Source of the DNA: a virus
Taxonomy: Duplodnaviria > Heunggongvirae > Uroviricota > Caudoviricetes
Length of the DNA: 64,000 nt
Reading direction: 5' to 3' (one strand)
Virus record (IMG/VR): IMGVR_UViG_2671181136_000006
Positions 20,600-64,000 of this stretch are shown in pieces. The translations under genes and the position numbers were made by a program. Positions within the stretch are counted from its first letter, which is position 1, and each line of letters begins with the position of its first letter. The notes beneath the pieces are model-generated. The model made no database searches, was not told the origin of the DNA, and saw nothing but the letters and a program-made list of their open reading frames with translations.

Positions 20600-20672
20600 G
20601 TATCACCAAATAAAGAGGGCCACTAAATATAGTGGCCCATGTTAATAGATAAGTACTTACCTATCAATGAAA

Positions 20673-21242: not shown

Positions 21243-21251
21243 ATAGTCTCC

Positions 21252-21995
21252 TTACCATGTTCCCCATATAGGGTTTTCCAATAATCTCGCCTCCAACGAA
21301 TTGGTTACTATTGCCGTTTGCAACGTTGGTTGGGGAGAGTTTGCAAAGTCTGAATACTCATTTTCCTGCGTGACACGTTTATCTGCGGCATGTTTAACAC
21401 CACTTGCTATGAAATGACGCATGATGCCCAACAGCCTCCGACTGTCTGCACTATCGTTTGCTAAAACATGAGGGAGCTGAAGTTCGATTTCTACCATTTC
21501 TCCATACTTACCAACAAACTGTAGTTTGTCCGCACTGTACTTTTTATCCCTCCTTTGGATAAGGAAACCAGTAAAAGCATCACCTGGCGATGCCAAACTA
21601 TCTACCCGCTTATTGGCAAGTCGAATAAGGTTCGTGAAAGCCATACAGTGATGCGCACCCATTCCCCCAAAGAACCCTTCGCTATTAATGTTAAGATCTT
21701 CATTTTCATGGGATGCAATAAACCCAGGCCCGACGTTGGGAAGATATCCCCCCTCAACAAAAGGATTAATCAGGATCGGCGCAATACATCCAGGTGGTAG
21801 TGATTTCAAACTTTGCATCAATGGCGTCTCGGATATTAGACCAAGCAACGCGGCGAATTGTACTCCGTCAATATTGTTGCTGCCCCACAGAATACGTGGA
21901 GCCGCACCATTGGAAGTATGCCCATTGATCAGTTTTATCGACTGCATCACTGCAAATACCTGCAAAAACTGCGAGCGGCTTAATTTAAACGACAT
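21252..21995 (-). CDS. hypothetical protein
   Basis: 247-aa ORF. Confidence 0.4.
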   Translation of the reverse strand: MSFKLSRSQFLQVFAVMQSIKLINGHTSNGAAPRILWGSNNIDGVQFAALLGLISETPLMQSLKSLPPGCIAPILINPFVEGGYLPNVGPGFIASHENEDLNINSEGFFGGMGAHHCMAFTNLIRLANKRVDSLASPGDAFTGFLIQRRDKKYSADKLQFVGKYGEMVEIELQLPHVLANDSADSRRLLGIMRHFIASGVKHAADKRVTQENEYSDFANSPQPTLQTAIVTNSLEARLLENPIWGTW

Positions 21996-23901: not shown

Positions 23902-24176
23902 ATAACACCTTTGATACCGTGTGTTAGCTTTTGACCTTCTTTCAATCTGAACTCCGTATGCGCCGGGAAGGATCTGCGCCTCAATACGCCTTTTCTGGTT
24001 AACCTTCCAAGATAAAACGCTACGGGATTTCCTTGTGGCGGGTAGGGCTTGTGAAACATCACCGTCTGGCCTCGTTCAAGTCTTTTCATCGTGATGGCAA
24101 AGTCTCGAAAGCTCCCATAACGACTTTGCCTCACACAGCCTCCGAACTCTCCGCTTCGGTGAGGATTTCCTGACAC
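23898..24176 (-). CDS. small hypothetical protein
   Basis: 92-aa ORF between sbcD and sbcC, overlaps both. Confidence 0.3.
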   Translation of the reverse strand: MSGNPHRSGEFGGCVRQSRYGSFRDFAITMKRLERGQTVMFHKPYPPQGNPVAFYLGRLTRKGVLRRRSFPAHTEFRLKEGQKLTHGIKGVI

Positions 24177-25216
24177 AAAATATCCAACTTGCTCAGATCA
24201 AATCCGCCGTCAGTATCGTGGACAATCTTGCAATAAGCAGATACCGACTCTCCCAGGCTATCGATTTTGCTGGTTTCCGTTGTGCTTGCTGTCCCTTCCA
24301 TCATTGATGACTTACGGATGAAGTTGCACACGACACCTTTTGCACCCATTGTTTTGAGGATGTTCTGGTACTTAATGCCTTCTTCATCGTTCTCAATTAC
24401 GGCGCGGAAACGCACGTAGTTGCCGCGAATTTGGTCATCGGCAACATAATCTTCCAGGTTAATGAATTTAGGCGCACTGGTTTCGTAGTGACTGAAACTG
24501 CCATCCGGGTTTACGATCATGTAACCAGCCAGAGATCCAACATCTCCCCAATTTTGATGGGTCAGCGCACCGACACTGATAACTCCAGGAATGACCTCTT
24601 TGTGGTTGTGGTAATGCCCACTAAGCACGAGACGAAAGCCGATATCCTTTAACTCCTGCGCATCGATACCGACGTCAGGCATTGTTGGAATGGCTTTGTT
24701 AATGGATGTATGGATAACAACGTCATGATTATCACCTTCTACACTCTTACGTAATGCTTTCAGATCGCTGATAAGCTCCGCATGATTGTTACGCCAGCTA
24801 ATCAGGTGGACAGTCACATCACCAATTTTTATTGAGTGTGGGCGTTTGCCACATACGATTACCACGCCGATAGAACTCAGCGATGCTGCTGCGTTGGCGC
24901 TATATACTGAATCGTTGGTTTCAAGATCGTGATTACCGGCCAGCATTACTACTGTCAGATCAAGCTCGTTGATAATCCACTTGTACGTTTCAGTTACGTA
25001 ATGCAAAACAGAAGGGGACACAGTTCCTCGGACGTGAAATGTATCACCGGCAACCAACATGTACTTACAACCGGCCTTCTTCATGGCGATGGCTGCTTCT
25101 TTCGTTGCTTCCAACTGTATTTCAAGTCTGGAGTTAAGCCCCTCTGCGTTCGTCGTGGAGAACGCATCCCATTTGTGGTAGTGGCAGTCAGAAATGACGC
25201 CGTATGGCAAAGTCAT
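24131..25216 (-). CDS. sbcD: SbcD/Mre11-like nuclease (calcineurin-like phosphoesterase)
   Basis: SDCHYH, AGDTFH, GNHD, GHYH metallophosphoesterase motifs. Confidence 0.85.
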   Translation of the reverse strand: MTLPYGVISDCHYHKWDAFSTTNAEGLNSRLEIQLEATKEAAIAMKKAGCKYMLVAGDTFHVRGTVSPSVLHYVTETYKWIINELDLTVVMLAGNHDLETNDSVYSANAAASLSSIGVVIVCGKRPHSIKIGDVTVHLISWRNNHAELISDLKALRKSVEGDNHDVVIHTSINKAIPTMPDVGIDAQELKDIGFRLVLSGHYHNHKEVIPGVISVGALTHQNWGDVGSLAGYMIVNPDGSFSHYETSAPKFINLEDYVADDQIRGNYVRFRAVIENDEEGIKYQNILKTMGAKGVVCNFIRKSSMMEGTASTTETSKIDSLGESVSAYCKIVHDTDGGFDLSKLDILCQEILTEAESSEAV

Positions 25217-25470
25217 GTGTTTTTCCTTTGTGGTTATTTTGATACAAATTTTAAGAGCAATGAGAAGGTAAACAACTATGCATAACGGTATGTTAGGAAT
25301 GAAACGAGCGTCTTAATATACAAAATTTATAAGTAAGTATATACCTATTTATTGTGGCGCAACTTTGCTTGTCTGTATGACTAAAAATAAGACAGGATCA
25401 CTGTAGAACGCTATGAGAGCTATTTTGAGGAGGCGTAGATTCTATCTACGCCAATATACGATCTGGAGGG

Positions 25471-26115
25471 TTACAGCGCGTCAGTGGGCTTTTTACGCGC
25501 TGCGTTTATGCTTATGACGCCAGCTTTTGGACGTGGGTCAACAAGGTTAAGCTCTTCTTCGCTGTGGTATTCGAGGTCGAACTCACGTTTTACATGTCTG
25601 ATGTAGATTGCGGTGAGCAGGCTATCTTTGGTCAGAAAGTGTCCGTAGGATTTGCGGATCACTTCTTCTACCTTCTCGATTTTCTCACCACCCATACAGA
25701 GATGATTAAACCGGCTGTGTTTCCGCAACATTTCGTCTACTGGGCCTGAGTAAACCTTGTCTACTTTCCCAAAACGGATGATTTTCCCTGTGTCTGCGGA
25801 TACGAGGCAAATCAGCTTGTCTGGTGATAAACGATCTCGCCACGTCACACCTGAACGGAGTGTGTTGAAGTAGGGAGCATCCAATCCGATGATCGGTTTA
25901 CGAAATGCGAGTAATGGAACGTACCTGATGCAACTGTTTAAATGAAAATTCACACCAGCCTTATCAAGTTTAATTCTGGTTTCGTAGATCGGGCACTTCG
26001 CCGCTATACCGCAGATGTCACAAAGCAACTTCTGCTTATTCAGGTTGGAATTTGATTCGATAGTGTAGGAGCCGTCTTCAAGACGACGAACCCAGCGCGT
26101 GCGTTTTAGATCCAT
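25471..26115 (-). CDS. hypothetical protein
   Basis: 214-aa ORF. Confidence 0.4.
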   Translation of the reverse strand: MDLKRTRWVRRLEDGSYTIESNSNLNKQKLLCDICGIAAKCPIYETRIKLDKAGVNFHLNSCIRYVPLLAFRKPIIGLDAPYFNTLRSGVTWRDRLSPDKLICLVSADTGKIIRFGKVDKVYSGPVDEMLRKHSRFNHLCMGGEKIEKVEEVIRKSYGHFLTKDSLLTAIYIRHVKREFDLEYHSEEELNLVDPRPKAGVISINAARKKPTDAL

Positions 26116-26300: not shown

Positions 26301-26315
26301 GAAGCCATGTTCATG

Positions 26316-26416
26316 TATGCTGTCAGCGGTAATTGATAGTCTGTCAGCGGTTCACCGTATGCTGCCAACTGTTTTTGGTATTCTGTCAGCGGCAAATCAA
26401 GTATGCTGTCAGCGGT
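26316..26416 (+). repeat. upstream iteron cluster (about 5 copies of TATGCTGTCAGCGGT and variants)
   Basis: copies at 26316, about 26337, about 26358 (partial), about 26389, 26402. Confidence 0.8.
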
Positions 26417-26436
26417 TGAATGACAAAGGTGTCCAC

Positions 26437-27531
26437 ATGTCCACAAAAAATAAAAAAGGTAAAAATAACAAAGAAGTAGAAGATAATCTCGACAACTTTG
26501 AAGAAGGTTCCCTTGAATTGTACACAGGGGAACTTGTCCCTAATAGCAACAATACAGTCCAACCAATTGCGTTGATGCGGCTGGGATTGTTCGTGCCCAC
26601 GCTCAAGGGGACAAAATACAGCAAGCGTAACAAGCCAAATGAGATCGATGCTTCAAAGGAGCTTGTTCAGCTCGAAGTAGCCCGTTCTGAAGGCTATTCC
26701 GATATCAAGATAACCGGTCCTCGTCTCGACATGGATCATGATTTCAAAACGTGGGTGGGCGTTGTGCGTTCGCTGGCAGAATACGGCGAACCTAACGGTC
26801 GTGTCGAGTTAAGCATCACGAAATTTGCGAAGTTTTGTGGCTATCCATCGTCACAGATCCGCAAAACACTCCGCGACCGGCTTACAAACAGTCTTTTGAA
26901 GATCATGCGTACAACTCTGTCTTTCCAGAGAACGTATGAAGAAAAGAACGTCGACGGCTCTAACAAGATCTCGCTTCTGATGGTGCACCTCATCAATAGC
27001 GTGGACTACAACGAGCAGAAAGATACGGTGGTGTTCTATGCAGAACCGAAGCTGGCCGAACTATATCGCTTTGACCATAAGGTTCTTTTGCAGTTAAAGG
27101 TTATCAATAAGCTACCACGCAAAGAAACAGCACAGGCTCTGTACACCTTCATCGAAAGTCTTCCAACCAAGCCTGCGCCGGTATCGCTTGCTCGATTGCG
27201 TGCGCGACTCAATTTGAGTAGCAGGAATGTCAGCTCGCAGAATCAGACTATACGCAACGGCTTAAAAGCTCTCCAAGATTTGGGCTATCTCGAATACAGC
27301 GAGATTAAGCGTGGGCGGTCGATCTATATCCAGATTCACAGCCGCAATCCAAAACTCAAAGTCGCACCGCCAAAACCTGAAGACATCGAACCCAAAAAAC
27401 TAGATGAGAAAGCTGGGGAAATTGATGCCAAACAGAACATTATCAACAAGATAACCGAACTTTCGCAGAATTTGACGCCTGAAAATATCAAGATGATTGA
27501 GATCCTTTCCAATAGTCTCAAACTGCTTTGA
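26437..27531 (+). CDS. repA: iteron-binding replication initiator (RepA/RepE-like)
   Basis: basic N-terminus, winged-helix-like pattern, flanked on both sides by 15-bp iterons; start set to ATG 26437 because the longer ORF runs through the iterons. Confidence 0.75.
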   Translation: MSTKNKKGKNNKEVEDNLDNFEEGSLELYTGELVPNSNNTVQPIALMRLGLFVPTLKGTKYSKRNKPNEIDASKELVQLEVARSEGYSDIKITGPRLDMDHDFKTWVGVVRSLAEYGEPNGRVELSITKFAKFCGYPSSQIRKTLRDRLTNSLLKIMRTTLSFQRTYEEKNVDGSNKISLLMVHLINSVDYNEQKDTVVFYAEPKLAELYRFDHKVLLQLKVINKLPRKETAQALYTFIESLPTKPAPVSLARLRARLNLSSRNVSSQNQTIRNGLKALQDLGYLEYSEIKRGRSIYIQIHSRNPKLKVAPPKPEDIEPKKLDEKAGEIDAKQNIINKITELSQNLTPENIKMIEILSNSLKLL

Positions 27532-28062
27532 TATGCTGTCAGCGGTGAAATGTATGCTATCAGCGGCTATTTTTCTGAAAAGTATGCTGTGAACGGTTAA
27601 AGATATGCTACCAGCGGTATAGTGAGATGAACGTATGCTGTGAGCGGTAAATCATCTATCACCACTCAATGCTCTGTCATACCTCCCCAGTGGTTACTAA
27701 CCTCGAAGAGTGCATTCCATATAGGTTTGCGCTCACTAACATTCTATTGCTATTGCGCTGATTGCTTGTAGTGAAAGGCATTTATTGCCTGCTACTCCCT
27801 GATAGAACGTATGCTGTCAGCGGTGTGTTATTGAGGAATTTTTGTTTGGATATGCTATCAGCGGTAATTAATGGTATATGTCAGACATTCGTATGCTGCC
27901 AGCGGTAATTTTGTTCTGGTTATACCCATACCGGGACACATTATTCATGCAATTTCTTAAGTATGCTGTCAGCGGTAAAAAATCGAGTAAAGTATGCTGT
28001 GAGCGGTGAGATAGACTCTCGATATGCTATCAGCGGTAGTTGATTGTGTATGCTGTCAGCGG
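27532..28062 (+). repeat. downstream iteron clusters (about 12 copies, two groups)
   Basis: TATGCT(G/A)(T/C)(C/G)A(G/A)CGGT at 27532, 27553, 27583, 27604, 27634, 27810, 27851, 27892, 27962, 27992, 28023, 28048; followed by GACTGCGGAACGTGCCGCAGTC hairpin. Confidence 0.8.
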
Positions 28063-28110
28063 TGACGACTATGAAATATGACTGCGGAACGTGCCGCAGT
28101 CAGTTTGCAT

Positions 28111-29630: not shown

Positions 29631-29691
29631 GTTTACTTCTCCTTATAAATAGGAAAATAATCACCTTTGAAAAAATAAAGCAAAGATATAT

Positions 29692-30081
29692 TCACTCCGA
29701 TACAAGACGTTTATATGCTTCGATGTCTCGACGTGCTTCACCGAGTTTTCTTCTTAGGTCCATATTTTCTGATTCAAGTTTTTCAATGTTTTTTTGGTAT
29801 CGGCCACGATGTTCTTCCCAGGCATCCTGATATGCCTTCATATATGTCGTATTAGCCTTTCTTTTTGCCTGACGAACCGCGTGGTGATTTTCTACAAACC
29901 AGTCAGGGTCGTTAAATGCTGCTCTTGCGCATTTATACCAATAATCGGTTGACTCTCTGTTTAACCAATGAATGGTGATAAATGGTAATCGAATAGACAG
30001 AATTTTTCGTTTGGAATCTCGCTCACCAAACATATGCCCTTTTTTTATCTTTAAACCGAACCCAGGTTGAATTAAAAGCAT
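29692..30081 (-). CDS. hypothetical protein
   Basis: 129-aa ORF. Confidence 0.35.
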   Translation of the reverse strand: MLLIQPGFGLKIKKGHMFGERDSKRKILSIRLPFITIHWLNRESTDYWYKCARAAFNDPDWFVENHHAVRQAKRKANTTYMKAYQDAWEEHRGRYQKNIEKLESENMDLRRKLGEARRDIEAYKRLVSE

Positions 30082-30101
30082 TGTCAGTACCTCAGATGCA
30101 T

Positions 30102-30842
30102 TTATGGCAGTAATTCTTTACCGCTTTCCATTTTGGTGATAGAGACAGTAGGATCATCGTTAATGCATGATTCTGTGCCTAATGCTGCTAACCCTTTACG
30201 CATAACCGTGCCCGCAACATACGCCTCAATCTCCGCCTTTCCAGATGAGACAATTTCATCCATTTGTTCCTGCATTAATTCGGTAGCAAAGCACAGATTT
30301 TCAGGAAGGTTAGCTACAGCAGATGCTAGTTTTCTATATAGTTCTTCAAGGTCACGTTTTCCAGCTCTTCCTTTTTTTACAAGTTCACCTAGCTCTGAAA
30401 CTTGCTGATTAAGTCGATCAATCTCACTATTCGTAGCGGCCTTTATTTGATCGTTGAATTTTTGCCGAATACTTTTTTGCTCGGCAATATCATGAACTCT
30501 AATTGAGTCTCCAATGGTTTTATATGAAATAGTGCATGGCACACCTTCGCCCACTCCAAAACTGCTAACCATAGCAGCCCATTGTGCCTGGCTAAGTCTA
30601 ATTTCAACTAAAGGCCGTCTATTGCAACTTCTTTGTGGGCGGGTTCGTTCATTGTCTAAGGACAGTTCCGCCTCGTAAACGCCTATTTCAATATAGTCTC
30701 TATGTTCCAGTTCTGAATCAAATAGGCGAATGCCAGTTGTGCTAACACGGCTTGTTTTCACAAGACCGAACGCTGGATGTGTTTGAATTTTTTCCCCATG
30801 TTTATTAAGGGTCGTTTTTGGTTCTTCAATTTTTCTTTTCAT
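30102..30842 (-). CDS. hypothetical protein
   Basis: 246-aa ORF. Confidence 0.4.
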   Translation of the reverse strand: MKRKIEEPKTTLNKHGEKIQTHPAFGLVKTSRVSTTGIRLFDSELEHRDYIEIGVYEAELSLDNERTRPQRSCNRRPLVEIRLSQAQWAAMVSSFGVGEGVPCTISYKTIGDSIRVHDIAEQKSIRQKFNDQIKAATNSEIDRLNQQVSELGELVKKGRAGKRDLEELYRKLASAVANLPENLCFATELMQEQMDEIVSSGKAEIEAYVAGTVMRKGLAALGTESCINDDPTVSITKMESGKELLP

Positions 30843-30888
30843 CTTATTAACCTCTATGCTTCATGCGTAAAGCTAAATGACAATTTTT

Positions 30889-31713
30889 TTAATATCCGGC
30901 GTATTCGTATTCTTCATTTAGACCGTATTCTTGTGGAGTGATACCAGGACAACATAACTCAAAGGCGAACTTGCGCCATTTGATTTTTTCTTCTGACGAT
31001 TGTTTGTTATTCGCCGGTGCAATGTAGTCATATTCCCATTTGCCGTTGCGAAGTAAAATGAATCCGCAGTTATTGCCGAAGTCTTCGTCTGCATAACGTA
31101 TTACAAACTCAAGGTGCGGGAACTTTCTAGCCATCGCTTGATAAATTGGTTTTGGCATAGACCAGGCTGTTTCAAAGCGAATCACCAACTCACCACCAGT
31201 TGCGGCATGTCTTGCAAGACGTTTTTTATAGATTCGTTTTGCATATGCTCGAACGTGTGTATGGCGGAAATTATGGCCGTACTTAATACGTGTAGGGATA
31301 CGTTTTACGGGCATTTCGATGTTGTAGGCATTCCATTTTGTTCCCCAATTAGCTCGCGACCAGTCAAACCATGAGTAATAGCCATAGCGACGATAATTCT
31401 CAAGCCGCATAAGAGCCTGCTCTTTGATTTTGCGAATTTCCTTGCGTGTCATTCCTGATTCACGCATAGCTAATTCGACCTGTTCTGGAGTCTTTAATTC
31501 ACCGAACATGTGGTCGTAAACTGTTTCGCCCGCCATTGCAGAGGCCATGCGCCTGATATGATTGTTTTCTTCCATTTCTATACTTTTCGGACGTCTGCAA
31601 ATGGTATTAAAGTCAATTAGACCTTTTTTGTTAGTTATGGCACGTATGAAATCTAAGCGTTGTTTATTTGTACCACCTATGACTCGGATTTCGTTTGTAA
31701 TGTGGTTGGGCAT
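30889..31713 (-). CDS. hypothetical protein
   Basis: 274 aa; W/Y-rich central motif WFDWSRANWGTKWNAY, family not recognised. Confidence 0.4.
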   Translation of the reverse strand: MPNHITNEIRVIGGTNKQRLDFIRAITNKKGLIDFNTICRRPKSIEMEENNHIRRMASAMAGETVYDHMFGELKTPEQVELAMRESGMTRKEIRKIKEQALMRLENYRRYGYYSWFDWSRANWGTKWNAYNIEMPVKRIPTRIKYGHNFRHTHVRAYAKRIYKKRLARHAATGGELVIRFETAWSMPKPIYQAMARKFPHLEFVIRYADEDFGNNCGFILLRNGKWEYDYIAPANNKQSSEEKIKWRKFAFELCCPGITPQEYGLNEEYEYAGY

Positions 31714-31764
31714 AATTAACTTAACCTTTTAACAAATTGTTTTCTTGTGTGTGATAATAACGAG

Positions 31765-48079: not shown

Positions 48080-48443
48080 GGCCGTTGTGGTGGCCGGTAC
48101 TGAATCTCCGGCATACGGTGCAGCCAATTAGGACTACGGACGATCACCGCTCGCGAAAGGGAAGATTTGCGGCCGCATTTCCCTAACATCCAAGAAAGCT
48201 ATCGCATCAGTCTGCGAATCCACCACAACGGTAAGATCACTACCTTTCGACCAGTCATTGTGCACATGAACGACGATTAACCGTAATGATCTTATCGTTG
48301 TGTTGTGAAGCCAGATGCTTATCTTCTGGTTGCCTCAAAGAGCTGCACTTCCTCACAACGGTAAGAGCACTGGTCTGACTCTATCGATTTACGGGCTTGT
48401 GGGTCAGTATCGCCGATTCGCCCAATGCACTTACCTGTTGTGT

Positions 48444-54257: not shown

Positions 54258-55598
54258 TTAGGTAACGTCTAAGATTCGCTCAATGAAGCGCATTTGTTCG
54301 AGGTTTTGTTTAACGCGAATGCTGATCCCTCCCTGCTGGTTACGTGAACCAGCAAAGTAGAGACGAGCCTCTCCTTTCGCTTCTTCTTCTTCGGTTTTGT
54401 TGATCGTTATTACCAGGTCAGCAATACGTACTTTTTCGATGTTGTCGGCAGCGTGCATCATTGTGGCAACTTCTGACGCGCCACCTTCACGGTTTGTCTG
54501 CGATGCCGTGATCCCAGCAACGTTATGCTTGTCATAAAGAGCACGTAAATCGGTGTAGATACTACGAATGTTGGCGCGATCATCACGAAGGTCATAACTG
54601 GCACGCATCAAATCTGCGTAGTCGACAACAACCATGTCAGGCACCATGCCATTGGCTTTCATACTGTTAAGCATACGGTCCAGATCTGCCGGTGACATAC
54701 TTCCTGACGGACGCTCAACAACCCACAAACTACCAATCCCCTTCGTGGCTCCCAACTCTGCCAACTTACGATGAACCTCATCGCGCCGTTCCACCAGCTT
54801 GGACATTTCTGTCTCCGACAATCTTGCATCAAAACGGTCGGATAAAATGGTGGTGTGAACCTCCAGCGAGAGATACAGAACATTGTAGCCAGCAAGCGTT
54901 GCGTTTATGGAAAACTCACCCATTGCGGTCGATTTACCGGATTTAGCGAACCCCATGAAGAGCACCATTTCGCGCTTTGCCCAGCCTTTTTGGTACAGCA
55001 ACCTATCGAGAAGAGGGAGTCCAGTTGTAATACTGTTTGGTACATACTCCTCTGAAGCCTCATATTCACGCGCTTTCAATCGCTCACTTGCGGAGGTGTA
55101 GTAGTCATAGATTCCGGTCGCTTCGTTCGATCCAATCTGCTGAACCTTGGCCATGATTGCCATCGCCCCCTGAAAGTCGCCTTTCTCTTTCAGTTCAGCA
55201 GCCTTAATCAGAGCATCATCAAACGCTACACTTTTTGCGAAGGTTGATACCTGGTCAACCATGTACGAGGTATCGGACAATTTTTCTGCAAGAATGCGCT
55301 TAAACGCAGCAACAACATCGGCGAATAGTTCCTCACGGATAGTCTTATCGCGTTTCGCACGCTTAAGCATATCCAGAATTGCAGATGAAGAGGGCGCGCT
55401 CTTGTACATACGGTAATAGCCCGAAACCATATTAACCAATATGGCATTGGCCGCATTGGCAAACTGGCTAGGCACAACCAGATCTCCCGCACGAGTAAGA
55501 AACTCGTGATCACGACAAAAATATGCCGTCAGTCTGTTCTGGAAATCTTCATCAAACTCTTCGGACAGCCCGCGTCCTGTATGGCAAAGTTCGGTCAT
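54258..55598 (-). CDS. DnaB-like replicative helicase
   Basis: Walker A GFAKSGKST, Walker B VVVDYADLM, RecA-like core in C-terminal half. Confidence 0.75.
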   Translation of the reverse strand: MTELCHTGRGLSEEFDEDFQNRLTAYFCRDHEFLTRAGDLVVPSQFANAANAILVNMVSGYYRMYKSAPSSSAILDMLKRAKRDKTIREELFADVVAAFKRILAEKLSDTSYMVDQVSTFAKSVAFDDALIKAAELKEKGDFQGAMAIMAKVQQIGSNEATGIYDYYTSASERLKAREYEASEEYVPNSITTGLPLLDRLLYQKGWAKREMVLFMGFAKSGKSTAMGEFSINATLAGYNVLYLSLEVHTTILSDRFDARLSETEMSKLVERRDEVHRKLAELGATKGIGSLWVVERPSGSMSPADLDRMLNSMKANGMVPDMVVVDYADLMRASYDLRDDRANIRSIYTDLRALYDKHNVAGITASQTNREGGASEVATMMHAADNIEKVRIADLVITINKTEEEEAKGEARLYFAGSRNQQGGISIRVKQNLEQMRFIERILDVT

Positions 55599-55641
55599 GT
55601 GCTTTCCTTTGTTTTTTAAACAAATTGTTTTCTAGTATTAG

Positions 55642-56391
55642 TTAATTAGATAGGGGATCAATAAACCGCCGTGCTTCTTCCAGTTCTTCTGGAAAGTGGG
55701 CGGAAATAAGGCGCTCTGGAACGATTTCCATTAGCCAGATAGCGGAGAAAATTGCGCGTATGCGCTTGCTGCGAGGGATGGTGCGCAAACGCTCCAGAAT
55801 CCACTCAAAATAGCTTTCCTGAATCGGGTTGAACTGCATGTCTCCCATATGCTTAAAGCTAACCAGAGAGTCATCCAGACGGGTTGTTGCGCGTCTGGCT
55901 AATTTCTCTTCAAATATCTCAATCAGTTCTGGCTGCCATAAATGCTGTGGGCGCGGCAGCTTGTCCCACAGCCGTCGTGCAGCTGCGGAAAGAACGGTGG
56001 AGATAAAGTAGTCGTATGAGCAGCAATAGCGGTCAGCAAACTGGCGTGCTTTCCATAGAGACGTTTTATTGGCAGTCGACAACTCCTGATAAGGCAGGCG
56101 TTTTAACCCGGTGGTGAACGGAGCTGTTTCAAAGTGTTCGCGACCGTGCGTCAGCATGATATTTGAGTACTGACGTTTGTATGCCTCCGTAAACAGACAG
56201 GTGGCCATAAGAGGATGCATGTCGCGGTAATCAAACCACTTCGTCTCGAAGAGTTCAGCCTCATCTTTACAGCGCGACAAACCAATGTTTTCAGCGACCC
56301 ACTTGTCCATAACAGCGGTATTCCACTCTGTCATGAAGTCGTACTGGTCGTTGTCGATGGTATCGAAAAAGATTTGGCTCATGTGGCTCAC
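55642..56391 (-). CDS. hypothetical protein
   Basis: 249-aa ORF. Confidence 0.4.
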   Translation of the reverse strand: MSHMSQIFFDTIDNDQYDFMTEWNTAVMDKWVAENIGLSRCKDEAELFETKWFDYRDMHPLMATCLFTEAYKRQYSNIMLTHGREHFETAPFTTGLKRLPYQELSTANKTSLWKARQFADRYCCSYDYFISTVLSAAARRLWDKLPRPQHLWQPELIEIFEEKLARRATTRLDDSLVSFKHMGDMQFNPIQESYFEWILERLRTIPRSKRIRAIFSAIWLMEIVPERLISAHFPEELEEARRFIDPLSN

Positions 56392-56494
56392 CCGGTAGGT
56401 AGTTACTTACTTATCACAATGAGCGGATGATAGCGACTGGTGGCAGTTTTTGGAAGTGAAAACGGAAGGGAGTTGTTCTGGTGGTGTCTTTTAA

Positions 56495-56555
56495 AAGACC
56501 TGCTTCCGTATATATTTAATAAGTTACTTATTATTTATATACAGAAACAGGCTCC
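56495..56555. repeat. second copy of about 60-bp inverted-arm element (see 10405-10468)
   Basis: CCTGCTTCCGTATAT...TATACAGAAACAGG in divergent intergenic region. Confidence 0.7.
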
Positions 56556-56656
56556 TAATGGATACCAAGAACAACATAATTTGACTCCAACCCCAGATGC
56601 TATGTCATTGACAGATTTATCAAGGGAGATCATGTTAGAATCAGTGTTTTAGCCTC

Positions 56657-57730
56657 GTGGATATTGTCACCATGCGCATGAATAGACTTCCAGGATATGG
56701 CCTTCCCGAACTGGCTTTTTGGCCTCAGCCTAAATATGAACGGAATAAATGGTCGATGTTCTGTCTGAAACTCCGTAATGATGGAACCCTTGCTTGGTAT
56801 CGGCGATATGTTGATCGTGGTATGCCAAACCACGCTTTTGATGACGACTACGATAACTATCCTGAAGCAAGAAAAGCGGCATTAGAGCTGAATAAAAACG
56901 TGAGCTTTGACATTGAAAAACTTCCTCTATCTATGTTTCAAAAGAAGTCATTGCGTTTGAAAGTTGACAAAGCACTCAAAGCCAAATCACGTCTCATGGA
57001 TGAAGAGCATATAATGCTCAACGAAGCAATTAAGGCACACGCCAACGATCCGCGAGTGACATTAAATGAGTTAATAATTAACCCAGATTACGAAACTTTG
57101 CGTCAACCCCTTTTTGACGTGCTAAGCGAGATGCCTTACTTACATTTTGTTTTTCTTCCCAAATTCCAAGTTTCACTTCAACTCGTTGCTCCTAACACTT
57201 GGGAATGTTCATATAACAACAAAGCTAAGACAGCGAAGATCTGCTACCAAGAACGCATAGCCAGAGGTTTTGGTTTATCAGGTGCTGCACATTGGGGAAA
57301 AACAAAAGCGACTATTCGCTCAATGCTTCTGCCGCGTGCTAACCGGTTACTGCAACTCGCCAGCGTAAAAAGAATGCTGGATGAAGCTCTCAGGAATGGG
57401 CAAAAGGTACTGGTTGTTGGCAACTTTGTTTTCTGGTTTGAGGACAAAAATCAGGTAGGTTGGAGTGTTAAAGTTGCTAGCGAAAGCGAAACCACCTCAA
57501 GAGGCAATACGCTCTGGAAAGAAGGAACTATCATTTCAAAAAATCACGGTCGAATTGTCGTGCTGCCGTATACAAAAGAAAACGGTAAACATGTAAAAGG
57601 TTATACCAAGAATGCCCCTAACGACGGCAACGCAATTCCGAGACATAAGGATGAGTATGTCGAGTTGCCCTTTGAAATTTTGGATGGTGACTTGATGTTC
57701 AGTCTGTTCGGTGAGCTTAACTACGAATAG
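56657..57730 (+). CDS. hypothetical protein
   Basis: 357-aa ORF. Confidence 0.4.
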   Translation: MDIVTMRMNRLPGYGLPELAFWPQPKYERNKWSMFCLKLRNDGTLAWYRRYVDRGMPNHAFDDDYDNYPEARKAALELNKNVSFDIEKLPLSMFQKKSLRLKVDKALKAKSRLMDEEHIMLNEAIKAHANDPRVTLNELIINPDYETLRQPLFDVLSEMPYLHFVFLPKFQVSLQLVAPNTWECSYNNKAKTAKICYQERIARGFGLSGAAHWGKTKATIRSMLLPRANRLLQLASVKRMLDEALRNGQKVLVVGNFVFWFEDKNQVGWSVKVASESETTSRGNTLWKEGTIISKNHGRIVVLPYTKENGKHVKGYTKNAPNDGNAIPRHKDEYVELPFEILDGDLMFSLFGELNYE

Positions 57731-57790
57731 CTTTCATAGAACGAAATATTTCTAAGGCTGTCCAATGCAGACCAGCCTTAGAGATTTATA

Positions 57791-58150
57791 TCAACCTTTC
57801 TTCATTAACTCGCGTTTAATTTCATCGGTACGCATCGTGACATCGGCAGCGGTGATCGCCTCATTCAATTTCACGATGTCCTCGATTTCCTGCGGTGACT
57901 TCTCTGCCAGATGGAAAATGGCTGCTCGAATCACGTCAGAACGAGTGAACTTCTCGAAGCGAGGGATGAACTTCATCATCTCCAGCAGTTCGAAGTATTC
58001 GTCCTCCAGTGACATTGTGCGGCTTTTAATTTTCTCTTTGCCACGAGTCGGGCGTCCCTGTGGTCTGACTGGTTGGCGCAAAGGAGTTGTGTTCTTAGCC
58101 GGTGCATCAGGCTCTTTGCGCTTTGCTAGGTCACCCATTTTCATGGACAT
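57791..58150 (-). CDS. small basic DNA-binding partition protein (ParG/RHH-like), candidate centromere-binding protein
   Basis: 119 aa, basic disordered N-terminus, directly downstream of and overlapping parA stop. Confidence 0.45.
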   Translation of the reverse strand: MSMKMGDLAKRKEPDAPAKNTTPLRQPVRPQGRPTRGKEKIKSRTMSLEDEYFELLEMMKFIPRFEKFTRSDVIRAAIFHLAEKSPQEIEDIVKLNEAITAADVTMRTDEIKRELMKKG

Positions 58151-58818
58151 TATTCTTCTTCCTCCAGACTCAACAGATAATCTACAAATTCTTCAAACTC
58201 GGCTTCCGCCTTTTTGTCGCGCTCGCTACCGGTCATTTCAAAGATAGAACGACCAGACTCTTCCGCATCATCATAGACGTTGCGGTTATATAGATTGACT
58301 GGCGCAGACTCGATTCCAAACGTCTCAACAATCTCTTTAGCCGCCAGAATGCGAGACACTTGTGATGGCAAAGCCGGGCACTGGTTCATGACCGCGCGGA
58401 CCTTCACTTTATCGTTTACATTGCGAACATTGTCGATAATAGGATCGATGTCACGTAAAGATTTCAAATCACGACGCTTAGGACGCAGCGGGATAATGAT
58501 AACGTCAGCCATCAGCATCGCTTGTCGCTGAATTTCGGAGTCGAAGCCACCAGCATCTACCACTACAAACTCAGCTCTACCCTGAAGCGATTTTAGGTGC
58601 TTAATGATGTCATCCTGAACGTATGCAAAAGGAATCAGCTCAAGGTCTTCGTTCTGTCGACGGTCTTCACACCAGCTCGTTGTCGTGCGCTGAATATCTA
58701 TATCGGTAATATAAACCTTCTTCTTCTTTTTGACTTTCAGGCAAACGGCAATTTGCTGGGCAACGGTGGATTTGCCAGGCCCGCCCTTTGTGCCGCCAAC
58801 CACAAAGATCTTGGTCAT
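58150..58818 (-). CDS. parA: ParA/Soj-family partition ATPase (small type Ib)
   Basis: deviant Walker A GGTKGGPGKST, 222 aa. Confidence 0.85.
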   Translation of the reverse strand: MTKIFVVGGTKGGPGKSTVAQQIAVCLKVKKKKKVYITDIDIQRTTTSWCEDRRQNEDLELIPFAYVQDDIIKHLKSLQGRAEFVVVDAGGFDSEIQRQAMLMADVIIIPLRPKRRDLKSLRDIDPIIDNVRNVNDKVKVRAVMNQCPALPSQVSRILAAKEIVETFGIESAPVNLYNRNVYDDAEESGRSIFEMTGSERDKKAEAEFEEFVDYLLSLEEEE

Positions 58819-59136
58819 TGGAGAGTTCCCTTTGCGTATATAATTATCGTCTGAAACAACTTGTTTTCTTATATGTGATATAGCCTAAATGCCTACGGCT
58901 GCGGTGTAAAGGTTAAATGGTAGGTTGTGATTAACAATTGGCAAACATAGCTTGTATTTGTCTGTTGAAAAAAGTAACAATGACCTCTATATTACAAGTA
59001 CGGTGATATGCCGTACACAATTTGATAATGCACACGTAATGGGCTATAGCCTTTTAAAGTAATTTTTGAGTCGAAAACTCAGTTTGAACAGAGGAGATTG
59101 ATGGCCTTCCTACATCACGGCCATCAGGAGGAATAC

Positions 59137-59406
59137 ATGTCAGCACTAAAAAAGCAGCGCATCGATTTGAGATTAACCGATGACGATAAAAGCATCATCG
59201 AGGAAGCTGCCGCAATGTCTAACCAGAGCATTACTCAGTTTATGGTTAGCAGTGCATCTGAACGTGCCGTGAAAGTTATAGAGCAACACCGTAGACTAGT
59301 TCTGAATGAAGAATCCTGGAATCTGGTTATGGACGCTATAAGCAATCCTCCGGCACCGAACGACAAGCTGAAACGAGCTGCTGATCGTCTGAAAAGCATG
59401 GAGTAG
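59137..59406 (+). CDS. ataR: RHH antitoxin of GNAT-toxin TA pair (AtaR/TacA-like, DUF1778)
   Basis: MSALKKQRIDLRLTDDDKSIIEEAA... closely resembles AtaR as recalled; AGGAGG SD 7 nt upstream of ATG 59137. Confidence 0.85.
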   Translation: MSALKKQRIDLRLTDDDKSIIEEAAAMSNQSITQFMVSSASERAVKVIEQHRRLVLNEESWNLVMDAISNPPAPNDKLKRAADRLKSME

Positions 59407-59413
59407 TTTACTC

Positions 59414-59935
59414 GTGGATAATATAAAGATAGAAATTTTCTCTGGAGAGAAAGATTATGATTTGAATGGTTTTGATTGCGGTGAAGAATCACTAAATGCC
59501 TTTTTAACCAACCACTTAAAAAGGCAGCATGAGGGAAAAATTCTTCGCGCTTATGTGCTTTGCACGAAAGAAGGCAGACCAAAAGTGTTAGGGTATTACA
59601 CTTTGTCAGGTAGCTGCTTTGAAAAGGAGTCCTTACCTTCAAGAAGCCAGCAAAAGAAGGTACCTTATCGGAATGTTCCAAGTGTTACTTTGGGTAGGCT
59701 GGCTTTGGACAAGTCCCTTCAAGGTCAAGGATTTGGCTCAATGCTTGTAACACATGCAATGCGCGTTGTGTACAATGCATCTCTTGCTGTAGGCATTCAT
59801 GGACTTTTCGTTGAGGCGTTAAATGACAAAGCCAAGGCGTTTTATAAAAGTTTAGACTTTATCCAGCTGGTTGGTAACAACGAGCGTTCTTTGTTCTATC
59901 CTACAAAATCTATCGAAAAATTGTTCGAAGAATAA
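59414..59935 (+). CDS. ataT: GNAT acetyltransferase toxin (AtaT/TacT-like)
   Basis: FDCGEE..N.FL..H, LGYYTL.GSCFE, SVTLGRLA.D.SLQGQG, GIHGLFVEALN.KA..FYKSL.F motifs near-collinear with AtaT as recalled; GTG start 8 bp after antitoxin stop. Confidence 0.9.
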   Translation: MDNIKIEIFSGEKDYDLNGFDCGEESLNAFLTNHLKRQHEGKILRAYVLCTKEGRPKVLGYYTLSGSCFEKESLPSRSQQKKVPYRNVPSVTLGRLALDKSLQGQGFGSMLVTHAMRVVYNASLAVGIHGLFVEALNDKAKAFYKSLDFIQLVGNNERSLFYPTKSIEKLFEE

Positions 59936-59966
59936 TGTACTCCCCTCAAGTGAGGGGAACTTCGCA

Positions 59967-60182
59967 TCACCAACCGCAAACTCTCTCTCCCATCGTATTG
60001 TGAAAAAGGATTTGGCGTTCGGTTTCTTCGGTCATCACATCATTATTGCTGATATAGATAGGCCCAGCTCCATCGCAGAACAATACGCTGGCGGTTTGTG
60101 GTTTAATGACGCACCCACTTATCATACAACTCACGATGAACGGCAGAAGCATCTTTCTGACGTATTTTATTGCTCGTCTCAT
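59967..60182 (-). CDS. o-spanin-like outer-membrane lipoprotein (Rz1-like)
   Basis: lipobox ...CMISGC, short Pro-containing periplasmic domain; overlaps 3' end of i-spanin ORF in another frame. Confidence 0.5.
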   Translation of the reverse strand: MRRAIKYVRKMLLPFIVSCMISGCVIKPQTASVLFCDGAGPIYISNNDVMTEETERQILFHNTMGERVCGW

Positions 60183-60354
60183 TCACCACTTCCACTGTGC
60201 TTTGAAGTCGTTTTCTGTCTTCCTGTTTTGCCTTCTCTTCCATTGCTCGTCGCGCCGCATTCCCGCCCATCGTGTAAGCGCCGACAAGAACGAAAAGAAC
60301 GGCAGCCAGCGTAATCAAAGCAACTTTTAGCTTTGTCATCAGGCTGCCTAGCAT
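60103..60354 (-). CDS. i-spanin-like protein (Rz-like)
   Basis: N-terminal TM helix followed by charged coiled-coil region; overlapped by o-spanin candidate. Confidence 0.5.
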   Translation of the reverse strand: MLGSLMTKLKVALITLAAVLFVLVGAYTMGGNAARRAMEEKAKQEDRKRLQSTVEVVNETSNKIRQKDASAVHRELYDKWVRH

Positions 60355-60355
60355 A

Positions 60356-60781
60356 TTAGACCATCCCTTTCTGGTGTTTTCTTACCTGCGACCAGGCAAT
60401 GAATCCTGCCACAACAATAGTGGCAATACCGAAGATGATGCGTACTGTATCCCCGCTAGAGATATGACCTTGTGCTTTATCCATAGCAGCGGAAACCTGC
60501 GGCATAACATCGGCCAGCTGCGCCAGACCAATACCTGCTGTAACAGTTGCGCCTGCGGTTTCTTTAGTTACAGGAACAGCCTTCACGGTTTTCACCGGCT
60601 TAACAACGCCAGCTCGACGCAGACCTTCCTCAATAACTTCTACCGCATACCAGGTGTTCAGCGTTTTTAGCGGGCCTCGGCCATTCTCGTGGCGAATGAT
60701 TGCCTCAACCAAAGGTCGAAGGATGTCGTAATCATGCAGATCGATGATCATGTCTGCGGTTACACCAACGGCTTTAGACAC
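60356..60781 (-). CDS. lysis-cassette protein with C-terminal TM segment, possibly N-terminally truncated by transposon insertion
   Basis: GTG start at 60781 sits 9 bp from the transposon IR; frame stays open 14 codons into the IR before a stop. Confidence 0.3.
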   Translation of the reverse strand: MSKAVGVTADMIIDLHDYDILRPLVEAIIRHENGRGPLKTLNTWYAVEVIEEGLRRAGVVKPVKTVKAVPVTKETAGATVTAGIGLAQLADVMPQVSAAMDKAQGHISSGDTVRIIFGIATIVVAGFIAWSQVRKHQKGMV

Positions 60782-60790
60782 CTCATTAAT

Positions 60791-60828
60791 GGGGGAACCG
60801 CAGAATTCGGAAAAAATCGTACGCTAAG
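60791..60828. repeat. Tn1721-type 38-bp terminal inverted repeat
   Basis: GGGGGAACCGCAGAATTCGGAAAAAATCGTACGCTAAG, near-identical to the Tn1721 IR as recalled. Confidence 0.85.
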
Positions 60829-60979
60829 CTAACGGTGTTCTCGTGACAGCTCTTTGACTAGGCTTTCTAAGGCCATTCTGATAGCCCTGACTTCCTGAAA
60901 AGCCATGGCTAAAATTTGTGCGGCTAAAAGGGATAACCGATGGTAAAGTAAGTTATCCCTGTCGAGATACTGAAAAGCG

Positions 60980-62557
60980 TTATCCTCGTTTTTCCCAAAA
61001 CTGTTTTGCCAGTTCGCTCAGAGCGCTAGTTAACTGAGCGACAGATTTCGCACTTTGCAAATTATTCTGCCCGGTCTGTACATTGGTATCAGCAGCATCG
61101 CGTATATTGATAATACTGCGGTTTATGTCTTCACTTACTGCTCCCTGCTGCTCGACCGCAGTCGCTATTTGCGCGTTCATGTCGGTAATTTCGTTAACGC
61201 GTTGGCCAATTCCATCAAGAGCTGTAGCTGCTTCCTCTGCGTGAGCTACACTCGTGTGCGCTTGCCGACTACTTTGCTCCATGACTGTAACAGCGGATTG
61301 CGCTCGCTCTTGTAGAGCGCTGATCATGCTTTGAATATCCGTTGTCGATTGCTGTGTGCGAGCAGCAAGACTGCGAACCTCATCGGCGACAACAGCAAAA
61401 CCACGCCCCTGCTCACCAGCACGCGCGGCCTCAATTGCTGCGTTGAGTGCCAACAAATTCGTTTGCTCGGCGATCCCTCGTATAACGTCAAGAACTTTTG
61501 ATATCTCGTTACTTTGACCTTCAAGCTCATGAATAACCTGAGTGGCTTGCCTAATTTCACCTTCAAGGGCAGTGATTGACTGGCTTGTGTGGGCTACCAG
61601 ACGCTGGCCAGATGCCGTCTCAGTGTCTGCTCTTCCGGCCGCATCTGCAGCATGCTGTGCATTGCTCGCAACCTCTTGAATGCTTGCCACCATTTGGTTT
61701 ACTGCCGTTGCTATTTGATCTGTCTCTGCCTGCTGCTCAACTGTAAGTACATTGCTTGACTCAATATCCTTTAGTAGGCCTCGGGTGTGTTCGCTAAGCC
61801 GATTTGATGCATCACCTATGCGACCTACTATGGCGCCTGTTTCAGCTTGCATCATTCGTAAAGCAAACTCTATTTGGCCAAACTCATCGGTGCGCCCAGT
61901 GTAGAGGGATTGACTTAATGGGTTATTGGAAATATTCCTGGCTCTTTCAACCAGTCTTCCAAGAGGAGAGAGAATAGCCAAAACACTAACAGAGCTTAAG
62001 CTTCCTGACATTAAAGTGGCTAACAATAAGCTGCTTATTGATGTATCAGTAAGCATGCCGGCAGCCATTGCGCTTGATATAATACTACCCCATATGAGCA
62101 AGAGTATTTTCACGGAAAAGCTAGCAGCCAATTTCGGCCTCGCGGCCTTCCCGCTTCTCAATTGAGCATATAATTTTTCCGCAGCCAAAACCTGCTCAGG
62201 TTCAGGCTTGGTCCTTACAGACTGGTATTCAACAATCGAACCATTCTTAGCTATTGGCGTTACATAAGCACTTACCCAATAGTGGTCGCCATTTTTACAG
62301 CGATTTTTTACTAGCCCCATCCATGAGCGGCCAGATTTTAATGTACTCCACATATGCTCAAATGCAGCAGGCGGCATATCTGGGTGTCTTACGATGTTGT
62401 GAGGCTGGCCTAATAGTTCTTCCTCAGTGAAACCACTGATTTTAATGAAGTCAGGATTAACGTACGTGATATGGCTTTGAGGGGAGGTAGTCGAAAGAAT
62501 ATTGGCATCTTTTGGGAGTTCTAAGTTTCGACCCGTCACTGGTAAATTCTGGCGCAT
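60980..62557 (-). CDS. methyl-accepting chemotaxis-like protein with N-terminal PAS domain (Tn1721 orfI-like passenger)
   Basis: Aer-like PAS N-terminus, TM region, highly conserved MCP signalling motif [37 protein letters not shown]. Confidence 0.85.
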
Positions 62558-62866
62558 AAGAACCTCAAGGGTTGGCTGTTTTATTTTATTGTTTTCGGCA
62601 TTAAGCCCAATTTCTTGAGCGTTACGATAAAGCTAGCATGGAAACGATAGGTGCAAGCAAGTTAAGGGTTGCATCGCGCATGTCAATCTAGGCTATACCC
62701 TAACTTGATGTCAGGCAGGGCCGCGCCGCTTCGTCAGAATAGAGTCTGCTTTCCCATTTTTTGACACATGCCCGCGAAGGTTATAGATTTCAGCCTGACA
62801 GAAATGGGCTTTGAGGCACAACGGAACAGAAAGTGCACTTAAGCCGCCTTCAACCAAGGAGACATC
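62558..62866. promoter_or_regulatory. res site / divergent promoter region
   Basis: between divergent orfI and tnpR; contains TGTCAGGC / GCCTGACAG inverted subsite-like repeats. Confidence 0.5.
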
Positions 62867-63427
62867 GTGCAGGGGCACCGCATCGGCTACGTCCGGGTCA
62901 GCAGCTTTGACCAGAACCCGGAACGCCAGCTGGAACAAACCCAGGTGAGCAAGGTGTTCACCGACAAGGCATCGGGCAAGGACACCCAGCGCCCCCAGCT
63001 CGAAGCGCTGCTGAGCTTCGTCCGCGAAGGCGATACAGTGGTGGTGCACAGCATGGATCGGCTGGCCCGCAACCTCGATGACCTGCGTCGCTTGGTACAG
63101 AAGCTGACTCAGCGCGGCGTGCGCATCGAGTTCCTGAAGGAGGGCCTGGTGTTCACTGGCGAGGACTCGCCGATGGCCAACCTGATGCTGTCGGTGATGG
63201 GGGCCTTCGCTGAGTTCGAGCGCGCCCTGATCCGCGAGCGGCAGCGTGAGGGCATCGCCTTGGCCAAGCAGCGTGGCGCGTACCGGGGCCGCAAGAAAGC
63301 CCTGTCCGATGAGCAGGCTGCTACCCTGCGGCAGCGAGCGACGGCCGGCGAGCCCAAGGCGCAGCTTGCCCGCGAGTTCAACATCAGCCGGGAAACCCTC
63401 TACCAGTACCTCCGCACGGACGACTGA
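62867..63427 (+). CDS. tnpR: serine resolvase TnpR
   Basis: IGYVRVSSFDQNPERQ with catalytic Ser, C-terminal HTH; near-identical to Tn21/Tn1721-subgroup resolvases as recalled; GTG start. Confidence 0.95.
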   Translation: MQGHRIGYVRVSSFDQNPERQLEQTQVSKVFTDKASGKDTQRPQLEALLSFVREGDTVVVHSMDRLARNLDDLRRLVQKLTQRGVRIEFLKEGLVFTGEDSPMANLMLSVMGAFAEFERALIRERQREGIALAKQRGAYRGRKKALSDEQAATLRQRATAGEPKAQLAREFNISRETLYQYLRTDD

Positions 63428-63430
63428 CAC

Positions 63431-64000
63431 ATGCCGCGTCGCTTGATCCTCTCGGCCACGGAGCGGGACACCCTGCTTGCGCTGCCGGAAAGCCAGGATG
63501 ACCTGATCCGCTACTACACCTTCAACGACTCCGACCTGTCGCTGATCCGCCAGCGACGCGGCGACGCCAACCGCCTCGGCTTCGCCGTGCAGCTCTGCCT
63601 GCTGCGCTACCCCGGTTACGCGCTGGGAACCGACAGCGAGCTGCCCGAGCCGGTCATCCTGTGGGTGGCGAAGCAAGTCCAGGCCGAGCCGGCGAGCTGG
63701 GCAAAGTACGGCGAGCGCGACGTGACCCGTCGCGAGCATGCCCAGGAACTGCGCACCTACCTGCAACTGGCCCCGTTCGGCCTGTCCGACTTCCGCGCCC
63801 TGGTGCGCGAGCTAACCGAGCTGGCCCAGCAGACCGACAAAGGCTTGCTGCTGGCCGGTCAGGCCCTGGAGAGCCTACGGCAGAAACGACGCATCCTGCC
63901 GGCGCTGAGCGTGATTGACCGGGCCTGCTCGGAAGCCATTGCGCGAGCCAATCGGCGGGGCTACCGCGCCCTGGTCGAACCACTCACGGACTCGCATCGG
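63431..64000 (+). CDS. tnpA: Tn3-family transposase TnpA, N-terminal part (truncated by window end)
   Basis: [44 protein letters not shown]... matches N-terminus of Tn21-subgroup TnpA as recalled; ATG 4 bp after tnpR stop. Confidence 0.9.

Follow-up and report, generated by a model that had tools for sequence, protein, structure and literature searches.

Positions 60791 to 64000 of the window (the whole 64,000-nucleotide stretch of DNA that was analysed) contain, in this order, a 38-bp terminal inverted repeat (IRL), an intact orfI (mcp) gene, a spacer containing res, the tnpR gene, and the 5′ end of tnpA. The IRL (positions 60791 to 60828, plus strand) has the sequence GGGGGAACCGCAGAATTCGGAAAAAATCGTACGCTAAG, which is of the Tn1721 type (GGGG...CGCTAAG). 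It is identical in the Tn1721 copies of pFBAOT6 and of an E. coli IncF plasmid. The IRL-type repeat occurred only once within the window, with zero occurrences expected by chance, and differed from the IRR (GGGGAGCCC...) at three positions, as expected. The orfI gene (60980 to 62557, minus strand) encodes a protein of 525 residues with matches to the Pfam domains MCPsignal (7e-44), PAS_3 (2e-17), and HAMP (1e-10), and WP_001323889.1 of the reference plasmids has the same length and position. Tn1722 carries orfI as a passenger gene, which specifies a chemoreceptor-like product and has no known role in transposition. The 309-bp spacer separating orfI from tnpR (62558 to 62866) is identical in sequence to that of Tn1721 and contains res, a site composed of three resolvase sub-sites. 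According to PMC13367494, which cites Rogowsky, Halford & Schmitt 1985, the res site of Tn1721 was mapped experimentally. The spacer also contains putative divergent promoter-like hexamers, defined solely by matches to the consensus, at 62761 to 62789 (plus strand) and 62714 to 62685 (minus strand).

The tnpR gene (62867 to 63427, plus strand) adjoins the res spacer, is co-directional with tnpA, and encodes a serine resolvase of 186 residues (Pfam Resolvase, 3e-39; HTH_7, 6e-14), for which the reference plasmids carry the annotation WP_001161490.1. The visible portion of tnpA (63431 to 64000, plus strand) comprises the first 570 nt, corresponding to 190 of the 988 codons of a gene that spans 2,967 nt in pSE79-2359 and in the reference E. 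coli IncF plasmid. Residues 6 to 169 of TnpA match DUF4158 (Pfam, 5e-55), which is the N-terminal domain of Tn3-family transposases. Residues 1 to 190 match the TnAs1 transposase with one substitution, and the catalytic DDE domain lies beyond the window. The IRL-orfI-res-tnpR-tnpA layout and the coordinates proposed in the preliminary description were confirmed except for the start of tnpA, which is at 63431 rather than 63432.

Tn1721 (X61367), a Tn3-family transposon of 11.1 kb that confers tetracycline resistance, was reportedly described by Allmeier and colleagues in 1992. Tn1721/Tn1722, designated TnAs1 in NCBI annotation, has had textbook status since 1979-1992. Comparison of the 3,210 bases with five reference copies of Tn1721/Tn1722 revealed a single mismatch, at position 63960, the IRL, orfI, res, tnpR, and the first 570 nt of tnpA being otherwise identical and present in the same order and orientation. 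With an exact IRL, one mismatch in 3,210 bases, and fitting protein domains, the initial proposal of a Tn3-family, Tn1721-like transposon was upheld. The 3,210-base segment matched more than 3,500 plasmid records of PLSDB at 99% identity or more. The element is thus already known and ordinary, and a copy that barely differs from thousands already recorded teaches nothing new about the transposon; it is the insertion site that is new.

The single mismatch consists of a G in place of the reference T (63960, plus strand), which replaces Val by Gly at codon 177 of tnpA, and is located 41 nt from the end of the contig. A G at this position was found in none of the 2,168 plasmid records holding that stretch of tnpA. 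The absence from these records and the nearness to the contig end argue against the base as the mark of a distinct lineage and, most simply, it is a contig-end error, which we consider the more likely explanation.

The sequence flanking the transposon belongs to an E. coli SSU5/pHCM2-like phage-plasmid. Altogether, 53,092 of the 64,000 bases of the window aligned collinearly with phage Cyrano (Cyrano positions 88665 to 27333), mostly at 94 to 98% identity, and the annotation of this phage includes RepA, ParA/ParB, head, tail, and lysis genes. The identity to SSU5 was 83%, and the tail, holin, endolysin, spanin, ParA, and helicase genes appear in an order shared by the relatives. Carriage by a phage-plasmid, as previously claimed, is supported, the carrier being a member of the SSU5/pHCM2 group. 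Close relatives range in size from 107.6 to 111 kb and differ from one another at the kilobase scale in the tail-fibre region. The source contig (CYBD01000014.1, from the E. coli draft genome GCA_001285985.1) is 111,398 bp long; it begins 47 kb before the first base of the window, and its last base is window position 64000. Subtraction of the 3,210 transposon bases leaves 108,188 bp, in comparison to 108,379 bp for Cyrano, indicating that the contig corresponds to roughly one complete circular phage-plasmid, linearized at a point within the transposon.

Alignment with Cyrano revealed that the backbone is uninterrupted up to ...CATTAAT and that the IRL begins immediately thereafter. On the backbone side, the IRL abuts codon 87 of a 230-codon endolysin gene, of which codons 87 to 230 and the stop codon are retained (60356 to 60790, minus strand) and codons 1 to 86 are absent from this side of the insertion. 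The translation of this remnant corresponds to residues 87 to 230 of the 230-residue endolysin of Cyrano with a single substitution (A to V). The gene is identified as an endolysin gene based on the match of the remnant to PHROG 873 ("endolysin"; E = 1e-36), the match of the full-length protein to PDB 7q47 ("Endolysin") over residues 3 to 151, and the location between the holin and Rz/Rz1 genes. Since the match to PDB 7q47 covers residues 3 to 151, the break falls within the catalytic domain. The IRL at codon 87 therefore splits this domain and lysis is probably lost, as judged from the split gene. Together, these results indicate that a Tn3-family transposon of the Tn1721/Tn1722 type (TnAs1) very probably interrupts the endolysin gene of an SSU5/pHCM2-like E. 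coli phage-plasmid, positions 60791 to 64000 being its 3.2 kb next to the IRL.

The switch from backbone to transposon coincides with the exact outermost base of the IRL and follows an AT-rich pentamer, TTAAT (60786 to 60790), the presumed 5-bp target site. This is the product expected of transposition. Reference copies of Tn1721 have 38-bp inverted repeats and 5-bp duplications (PMC5736529), the latter being TTTTT for Tn1722 in pSE79-2359 and TCATC for Tn1721 in the E. coli IncF plasmid. The source is a short-read draft with a unique base close to the contig end, as might be found in an assembly chimera in which the transposon and the phage-plasmid were wrongly joined. Such a chimera is nonetheless very improbable, as the junction falls at the exact outer base of the IRL, beside an AT-rich pentamer within a gene, the two sides share no sequence able to mislead an assembler, and the contig fits one full circle minus only the region past the junction.

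The same backbone-IRL junction was not spanned by any record of the phage collection, the PLSDB plasmids, or the complete E. coli genomes, and exact-match scans of the GTDB species representatives and of IMG/VR for this junction returned no match. Matches extending 12 to 23 nt upstream of the IRL were considered as candidates for the same site and rejected: the two that were examined were IS26-truncated copies in unrelated IncHI1B and IncI backbones, and these extensions are chance similarity. For the opposite side of the element, exact look-up in the protein collection of four predicted right-junction fusion proteins (endolysin residues 1 to 86 followed by the target site duplication and read-through into the IRR or the IRL) identified none. 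A homology search with the right-junction fusion retrieved only partial endolysins located at contig ends of other assemblies. At the DNA level, neither the IRL-type right-junction pattern in GTDB nor the IRR pattern in IMG/VR was found. The right-junction protein could be missing because its N terminus varies, because the gene was called only in part, or because the right junction is non-canonical.

The visible part of the element is the IRL end only, up to codon 190 of tnpA. This left end fits Tn1721 and Tn1722 alike because identical sequences of 3,210 bases head both transposons. Carriage of tetracycline resistance is a matter of what lies beyond the visible sequence, since base 64000 is the last of the source contig, and we give roughly even odds to the presence of tet(A) on the element. 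The tet region of Tn1721 (tetR, tet(A), pecM, a truncated copy of tnpA, and IRR-II) would be located past the contig end. Tn1722, the "minor transposon" of Tn1721 (IRL-orfI-res-tnpR-tnpA-IRR), is alike in everything visible here, and only the 2.4 kb at its 3′ end, covering the remainder of tnpA plus the IRR, would be located past the contig end.

If the element were a complete 11.1-kb Tn1721, to which we assign slightly under an even chance, the phage-plasmid would possess tetR-tet(A)-pecM together with a second IRR and would confer tetracycline resistance. In the E. coli IncF plasmid, the same 3,210 bases form the start of a full Tn1721 that includes tetR/tet(A). In PLSDB, 238 plasmids contained at least 80% of the full Tn1721 in one place, versus 381 (of at least 5,000 matching plasmids) with at least 80% of the left end, a ratio of ~0.6. 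Tn1721 contains an internal repeat extending from nt 1215 of tnpA through the IRR, and a short-read break inside the element fits such repeated parts. However, the contig breaks at nt 570 of tnpA, i.e., 645 nt before the repeat boundary and with a probable end error, which excludes the edge of the internal repeat as the site of the break, so that the break in itself is no pointer to Tn1721. Moreover, the window contains no tet sequence and the genome would reach ~119 kb.

The element might instead be a cryptic 5.6-kb Tn1722 alone, devoid of any resistance gene, the 111.4-kb contig being in that case the whole circle opened arbitrarily in tnpA. We regard this as an appreciable possibility, though somewhat less probable than a complete Tn1721. 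A 5,640-bp copy of Tn1722 with an identical left end, flanked by the 5-bp duplication TTTTT and lacking a resistance gene, is present in pSE79-2359, and a copy of the length of Tn1722 is also present on a P1-like phage-plasmid. The 111,398 bp of the contig would then comprise Tn1722 and a backbone of 105.8 kb, which is feasible given the variation of the tail-fibre region among relatives but below the size of all of the close relatives seen (107.6 to 111 kb). The prior counts also slightly favor Tn1721.

Finally, the left end could belong to a truncated Tn1721 remnant edging a larger resistance region of the IS26 or integron type, the far side having been joined by other events and lacking a matching IRR or target duplication. 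Most database matches are partial, as illustrated by the 381 of at least 5,000 plasmids with at least 80% of the segment, and IS26-truncated copies are common, including those in the IncHI1B and IncI backbones. The copy on that P1-like phage-plasmid has no matching 5-bp flanks, and the protein collection lacked the protein predicted for a canonical right junction. Set against these points, no IS sequence interrupts the left end, which stays intact as far as the contig reaches, and a contig of 111,398 bp agrees with simple insertion into a backbone that is otherwise whole, making a remnant unlikely.

From what is established for the Tn3 family and for Tn1721, TnpA would bind the 38-bp terminal repeats and drive the element replicatively into a target rich in A and T, in this case TTAAT. 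The resulting cointegrate would be resolved by TnpR at res, upstream of tnpR, where the serine resolvase would also repress the divergent promoters. The process would leave behind a 5-bp target duplication. In the case of simple transposition, a TTAAT repeat would be expected past the far end of the element, and the canonical far junction would read ...CTGCGGGCTCCCC then TTAATGTAGGCGTCAG followed by the 5′ part of the endolysin gene. Insertion would part endolysin codons 1 to 86 from codons 87 to 230 and, as a consequence of this split, the phage-plasmid should be incapable of host lysis and should be maintained in plasmid form. We tentatively suggest, as a rather doubtful extension of this scheme, that a resistance transposon in the endolysin gene has "grounded" the phage-plasmid, which would be a lysis-defective, plasmid-only, and tetracycline-selected replicon, i.e., an intermediate caught in the act of conversion from phage-plasmid to plasmid. 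Disruption of the endolysin would imply that a carrier of a resistance transposon may no longer spread as a virus.

P1-like phage-plasmids, including an isolate of Escherichia phage P1 (MH445380.1) and Salmonella phage SJ46, carry an identical left end, indicating that carriage of the element by phage-plasmids is already on record. The P1-like copies differ from the one described here, since they belong to another family than SSU5 and are located in a multi-resistance region next to ref, with no matching 5-bp flanks and not in a lysis gene. In the phage collection, the transposon segment had only four matches, none of which was on an SSU5-type record. The copy in the window adds an SSU5-group example to the carriage of Tn1721/Tn1722, found here before only on P1-like elements, an addition of modest value. 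SSU5-group phage-plasmids of Enterobacteriaceae with Tn3-like unit transposons and further resistance elements provide another parallel, namely, a Tn3-family transposon on an SSU5-like backbone. The insertions reported in that group involve blaTEM near tRNA loci or are clustered in one plastic locus, and are said to avoid conserved phage genes (PMC9600943; bioRxiv 10.1101/2025.09.12.675607). In contrast to these published insertions, the site occupied here is the conserved endolysin gene. For surveillance purposes, a draft contig ending inside tnpA is not scorable as "phage-borne tet(A)."

The GC content was 0.457 for the backbone, 0.475 for orfI, 0.466 for the spacer, 0.656 for tnpR, and 0.681 for tnpA. 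The GC jump that had been taken as a mark of different ancestry in the preliminary description is therefore real and occurs at tnpR, but it lies inside the transposon rather than at the boundary between transposon and backbone. Thus, the step reflects the mosaic make-up of Tn1721 itself and not a separate acquisition by the replicon.

The segment at 60791-64000 begins with a 38-bp terminal inverted repeat (IRL, GGGGGAACCGCAGAATTCGGAAAAAATCGTACGCTAAG; 60791-60828), followed by orfI (mcp; 525 codons, 60980-62557, minus strand; Pfam PAS, HAMP, and MCPsignal), a 309-bp orfI-tnpR spacer (62558-62866), tnpR (186 codons, 62867-63427, plus strand; Pfam Resolvase and HTH_7), and the 5' part of tnpA, which starts at 63431 on the plus strand and runs off the window end. 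The tnpA fragment encodes Pfam domain DUF4158, the N-terminal domain of Tn3-family transposases. IRL occurs once in the window (chance expectation, none) and is identical to the IRL of the Tn1721 copies carried by pFBAOT6 and one IncF plasmid, in which its right partner, IRR, is GGGGAGCCC.... A BLAST comparison of the segment had been proposed in the preliminary description; megablast against PLSDB detected at least 80% of the 3210 bases in 381 records and matches at ≥99% identity in more than 3,500. Base-by-base comparison with five reference copies revealed a single mismatch, at 63960, where G replaces the T of every reference copy (TnpA V177G). Since this G is located 41 nt from the contig end and was found in 0 of 2,168 PLSDB plasmid records, it is probably a contig-end error or, possibly, a private mutation. 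The identity of IRL, the domains of the open reading frames, and the single mismatch bear out the Tn1721/Tn1722-type organization recognized in the preliminary description. The GC jump reported there is real, but it falls within the transposon (orfI, 0.475; spacer, 0.466; tnpR, 0.656; tnpA, 0.681; backbone, 0.457), indicating that it is a property of the mosaic structure of Tn1721 itself.

Left of IRL, the window belongs to a phage-plasmid of the SSU5/pHCM2 group. The backbone at 55000-60790 displayed 96-99% identity to Escherichia phages CMS-2020a, Cyrano, and PhiR41_1 and 83% identity to SSU5. Whole-window alignment revealed 53,092 bases collinear with Cyrano (88665 down to 27333), in a region that carries genes for RepA, ParA, and DNA metabolism together with the lysis cassette. 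The order tail J, tail fibre, holin, endolysin, Rz, toxin-antitoxin, ParA, and helicase is common to relatives on contigs of ~108-111 kb. These SSU5-group matches and the collinearity with Cyrano confirm the type of carrier that had been proposed.

Five stretches of this otherwise collinear alignment (493-981, 2403-3607, 26304-28093, 29650-31719, and 48080-48437) have no counterpart in Cyrano. The phage-plasmid presumably carries them as strain-specific accessory cassettes. A variable slot (56560-57788) separates the partition genes (ParA and an adjoining 119-aa open reading frame) from the helicase gene and resembles a hotspot for accessory or defence-type genes, relatives carrying a GIY-YIG/LEM-3-like, DUF2971, or KAP-NTPase gene at this position. 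Here, the slot encodes a 357-aa protein (56657-57730, plus strand) matching PHROG 22329, of unknown function, and having no match in Pfam or PADLOC. An addiction module at 59098-59935 (plus strand), kept in all relatives seen, comprises a TacA-like antitoxin (102-codon open reading frame, called as 101 aa; PF08681) and a 173-aa GNAT acetyltransferase toxin of the KacT/TacT type, and directly adjoins the Rz/Rz1 spanin genes (59967-60354, minus strand).

Alignment with Cyrano showed that the backbone is unbroken up to ...CACCTCATTAAT, where IRL starts from its outermost base. On the backbone side, the minus strand codes for residues 87-230 of the Cyrano endolysin (230 aa; PHROG 873, "endolysin"), whose gene is placed between the holin and Rz/Rz1 genes. 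Because residues 3-151 match the solved endolysin 7q47, the break at residue 87 splits the catalytic domain, and endolysin function would be lost. The preliminary description, correct for the element and the type of carrier, was incomplete with respect to this insertion site. Transposition of Tn3-family elements yields a junction at the exact terminus of the inverted repeat beside an AT-rich pentamer, and the reference copies are flanked by 5-bp duplications (TTTTT around Tn1722 in reference plasmid pSE79-2359; TCATC around Tn1721 in an E. coli IncF plasmid). The insertion appears to be a genuine transposition event.

The predicted right-junction fusions, running from endolysin residues 1-86 through TTAAT into an IRR or IRL-type end, were absent from the protein collection, and a homology search with the fusion retrieved only partial endolysins from other assemblies. 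Junction patterns were found neither in GTDB representatives nor in IMG/VR, the right junction being searched as DNA with the IRL-type end only in GTDB and with the IRR pattern in IMG/VR only. None of the collections of phages, plasmids, and complete E. coli genomes contained a record spanning the left junction. Two homologous endolysins from other assemblies, P0115 and P0118 (contigs of 114,651 and 53,878 bp), end after ~41 residues in unrelated tails (...KDPVWGFGH and ...KDPVWGFGLWQ). They may reflect separate disruptions, or frameshifts, of the endolysin gene in other SSU5-like elements.

Exact protein look-up traced the truncated endolysin to one contig of an E. coli draft genome (GCA_001285985.1), CYBD01000014.1 (111,398 bp). 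Over its final 13,645 bases, the window is identical to the reverse complement of the locus, and the window corresponds to contig positions 47399-111398. Since the locus stops at position 111398, the contig ends at window base 64000. Features leaving the right edge of the window are cut by assembly and not by windowing. Without the 3210 transposon bases, the contig comprises 108,188 bp, versus 108,379 bp for Cyrano, and its part outside the window comprises 47,398 bases, versus the 47,047 needed to close the Cyrano circle. Thus, CYBD01000014.1 corresponds to roughly one complete circle of the phage-plasmid, with the opening located within the transposon.

The identical 3210 bases head both complete Tn1721 (11,127 bp in the IncF plasmid), which contains IRR-I, tetR(A), tet(A), an EamA/pecM gene, a tnpA repeat from nt 1215, and IRR-II, and the bare Tn1722 of pSE79-2359 (5640 bp), which contains no resistance gene. 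This two-part structure and the independent transposition of the minor element have been described (PMC5736529). In PLSDB, 238 plasmids carry at least 80% of Tn1721 at a single locus, versus 381 with an intact left end, giving tet(A) a prior somewhat better than even. The presence of complete Tn1721 with tet(A) beyond the contig end, which the preliminary description considered plausible, has a little under an even chance. Tn1722 alone is less likely than not; a closed circle with Tn1722, opened at an arbitrary point, fits 111,398 bp if the backbone is ~105.8 kb. A rearranged remnant is improbable. The contig does not break at the internal repeat boundary of Tn1721 (tnpA nt 1215) but at tnpA nt 570, and the break position is therefore uninformative on Tn1721 versus Tn1722.

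Tn1721 and Tn1722 have been known since the late 1970s and were sequenced in 1992; NCBI annotates the element as TnAs1 family. The transposon itself is thus already known, and only its location is new. SSU5-group phage-plasmids carry resistance elements, including Tn3-like transposons, and those reported cluster in plastic loci, avoiding conserved phage genes (PMC9600943; bioRxiv 10.1101/2025.09.12.675607). In comparison, insertion in the endolysin gene is the sole unusual aspect here. Such an insertion should leave a lysis-defective element persisting as a plasmid only, but that a resistance transposon grounded the phage-plasmid in this way is a tentative and rather doubtful proposal. The identical transposon left end is already on record in the P1-like phage-plasmids MH445380.1 and SJ46. 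In MH445380.1, a Tn1722-length copy with this left end (20001-25640) adjoins a multi-resistance region. No 5-bp duplication is common to its two flanks (CTCTTT... versus GTTAA...), and it was therefore probably recombination, rather than simple transposition, that placed or reshuffled this copy.
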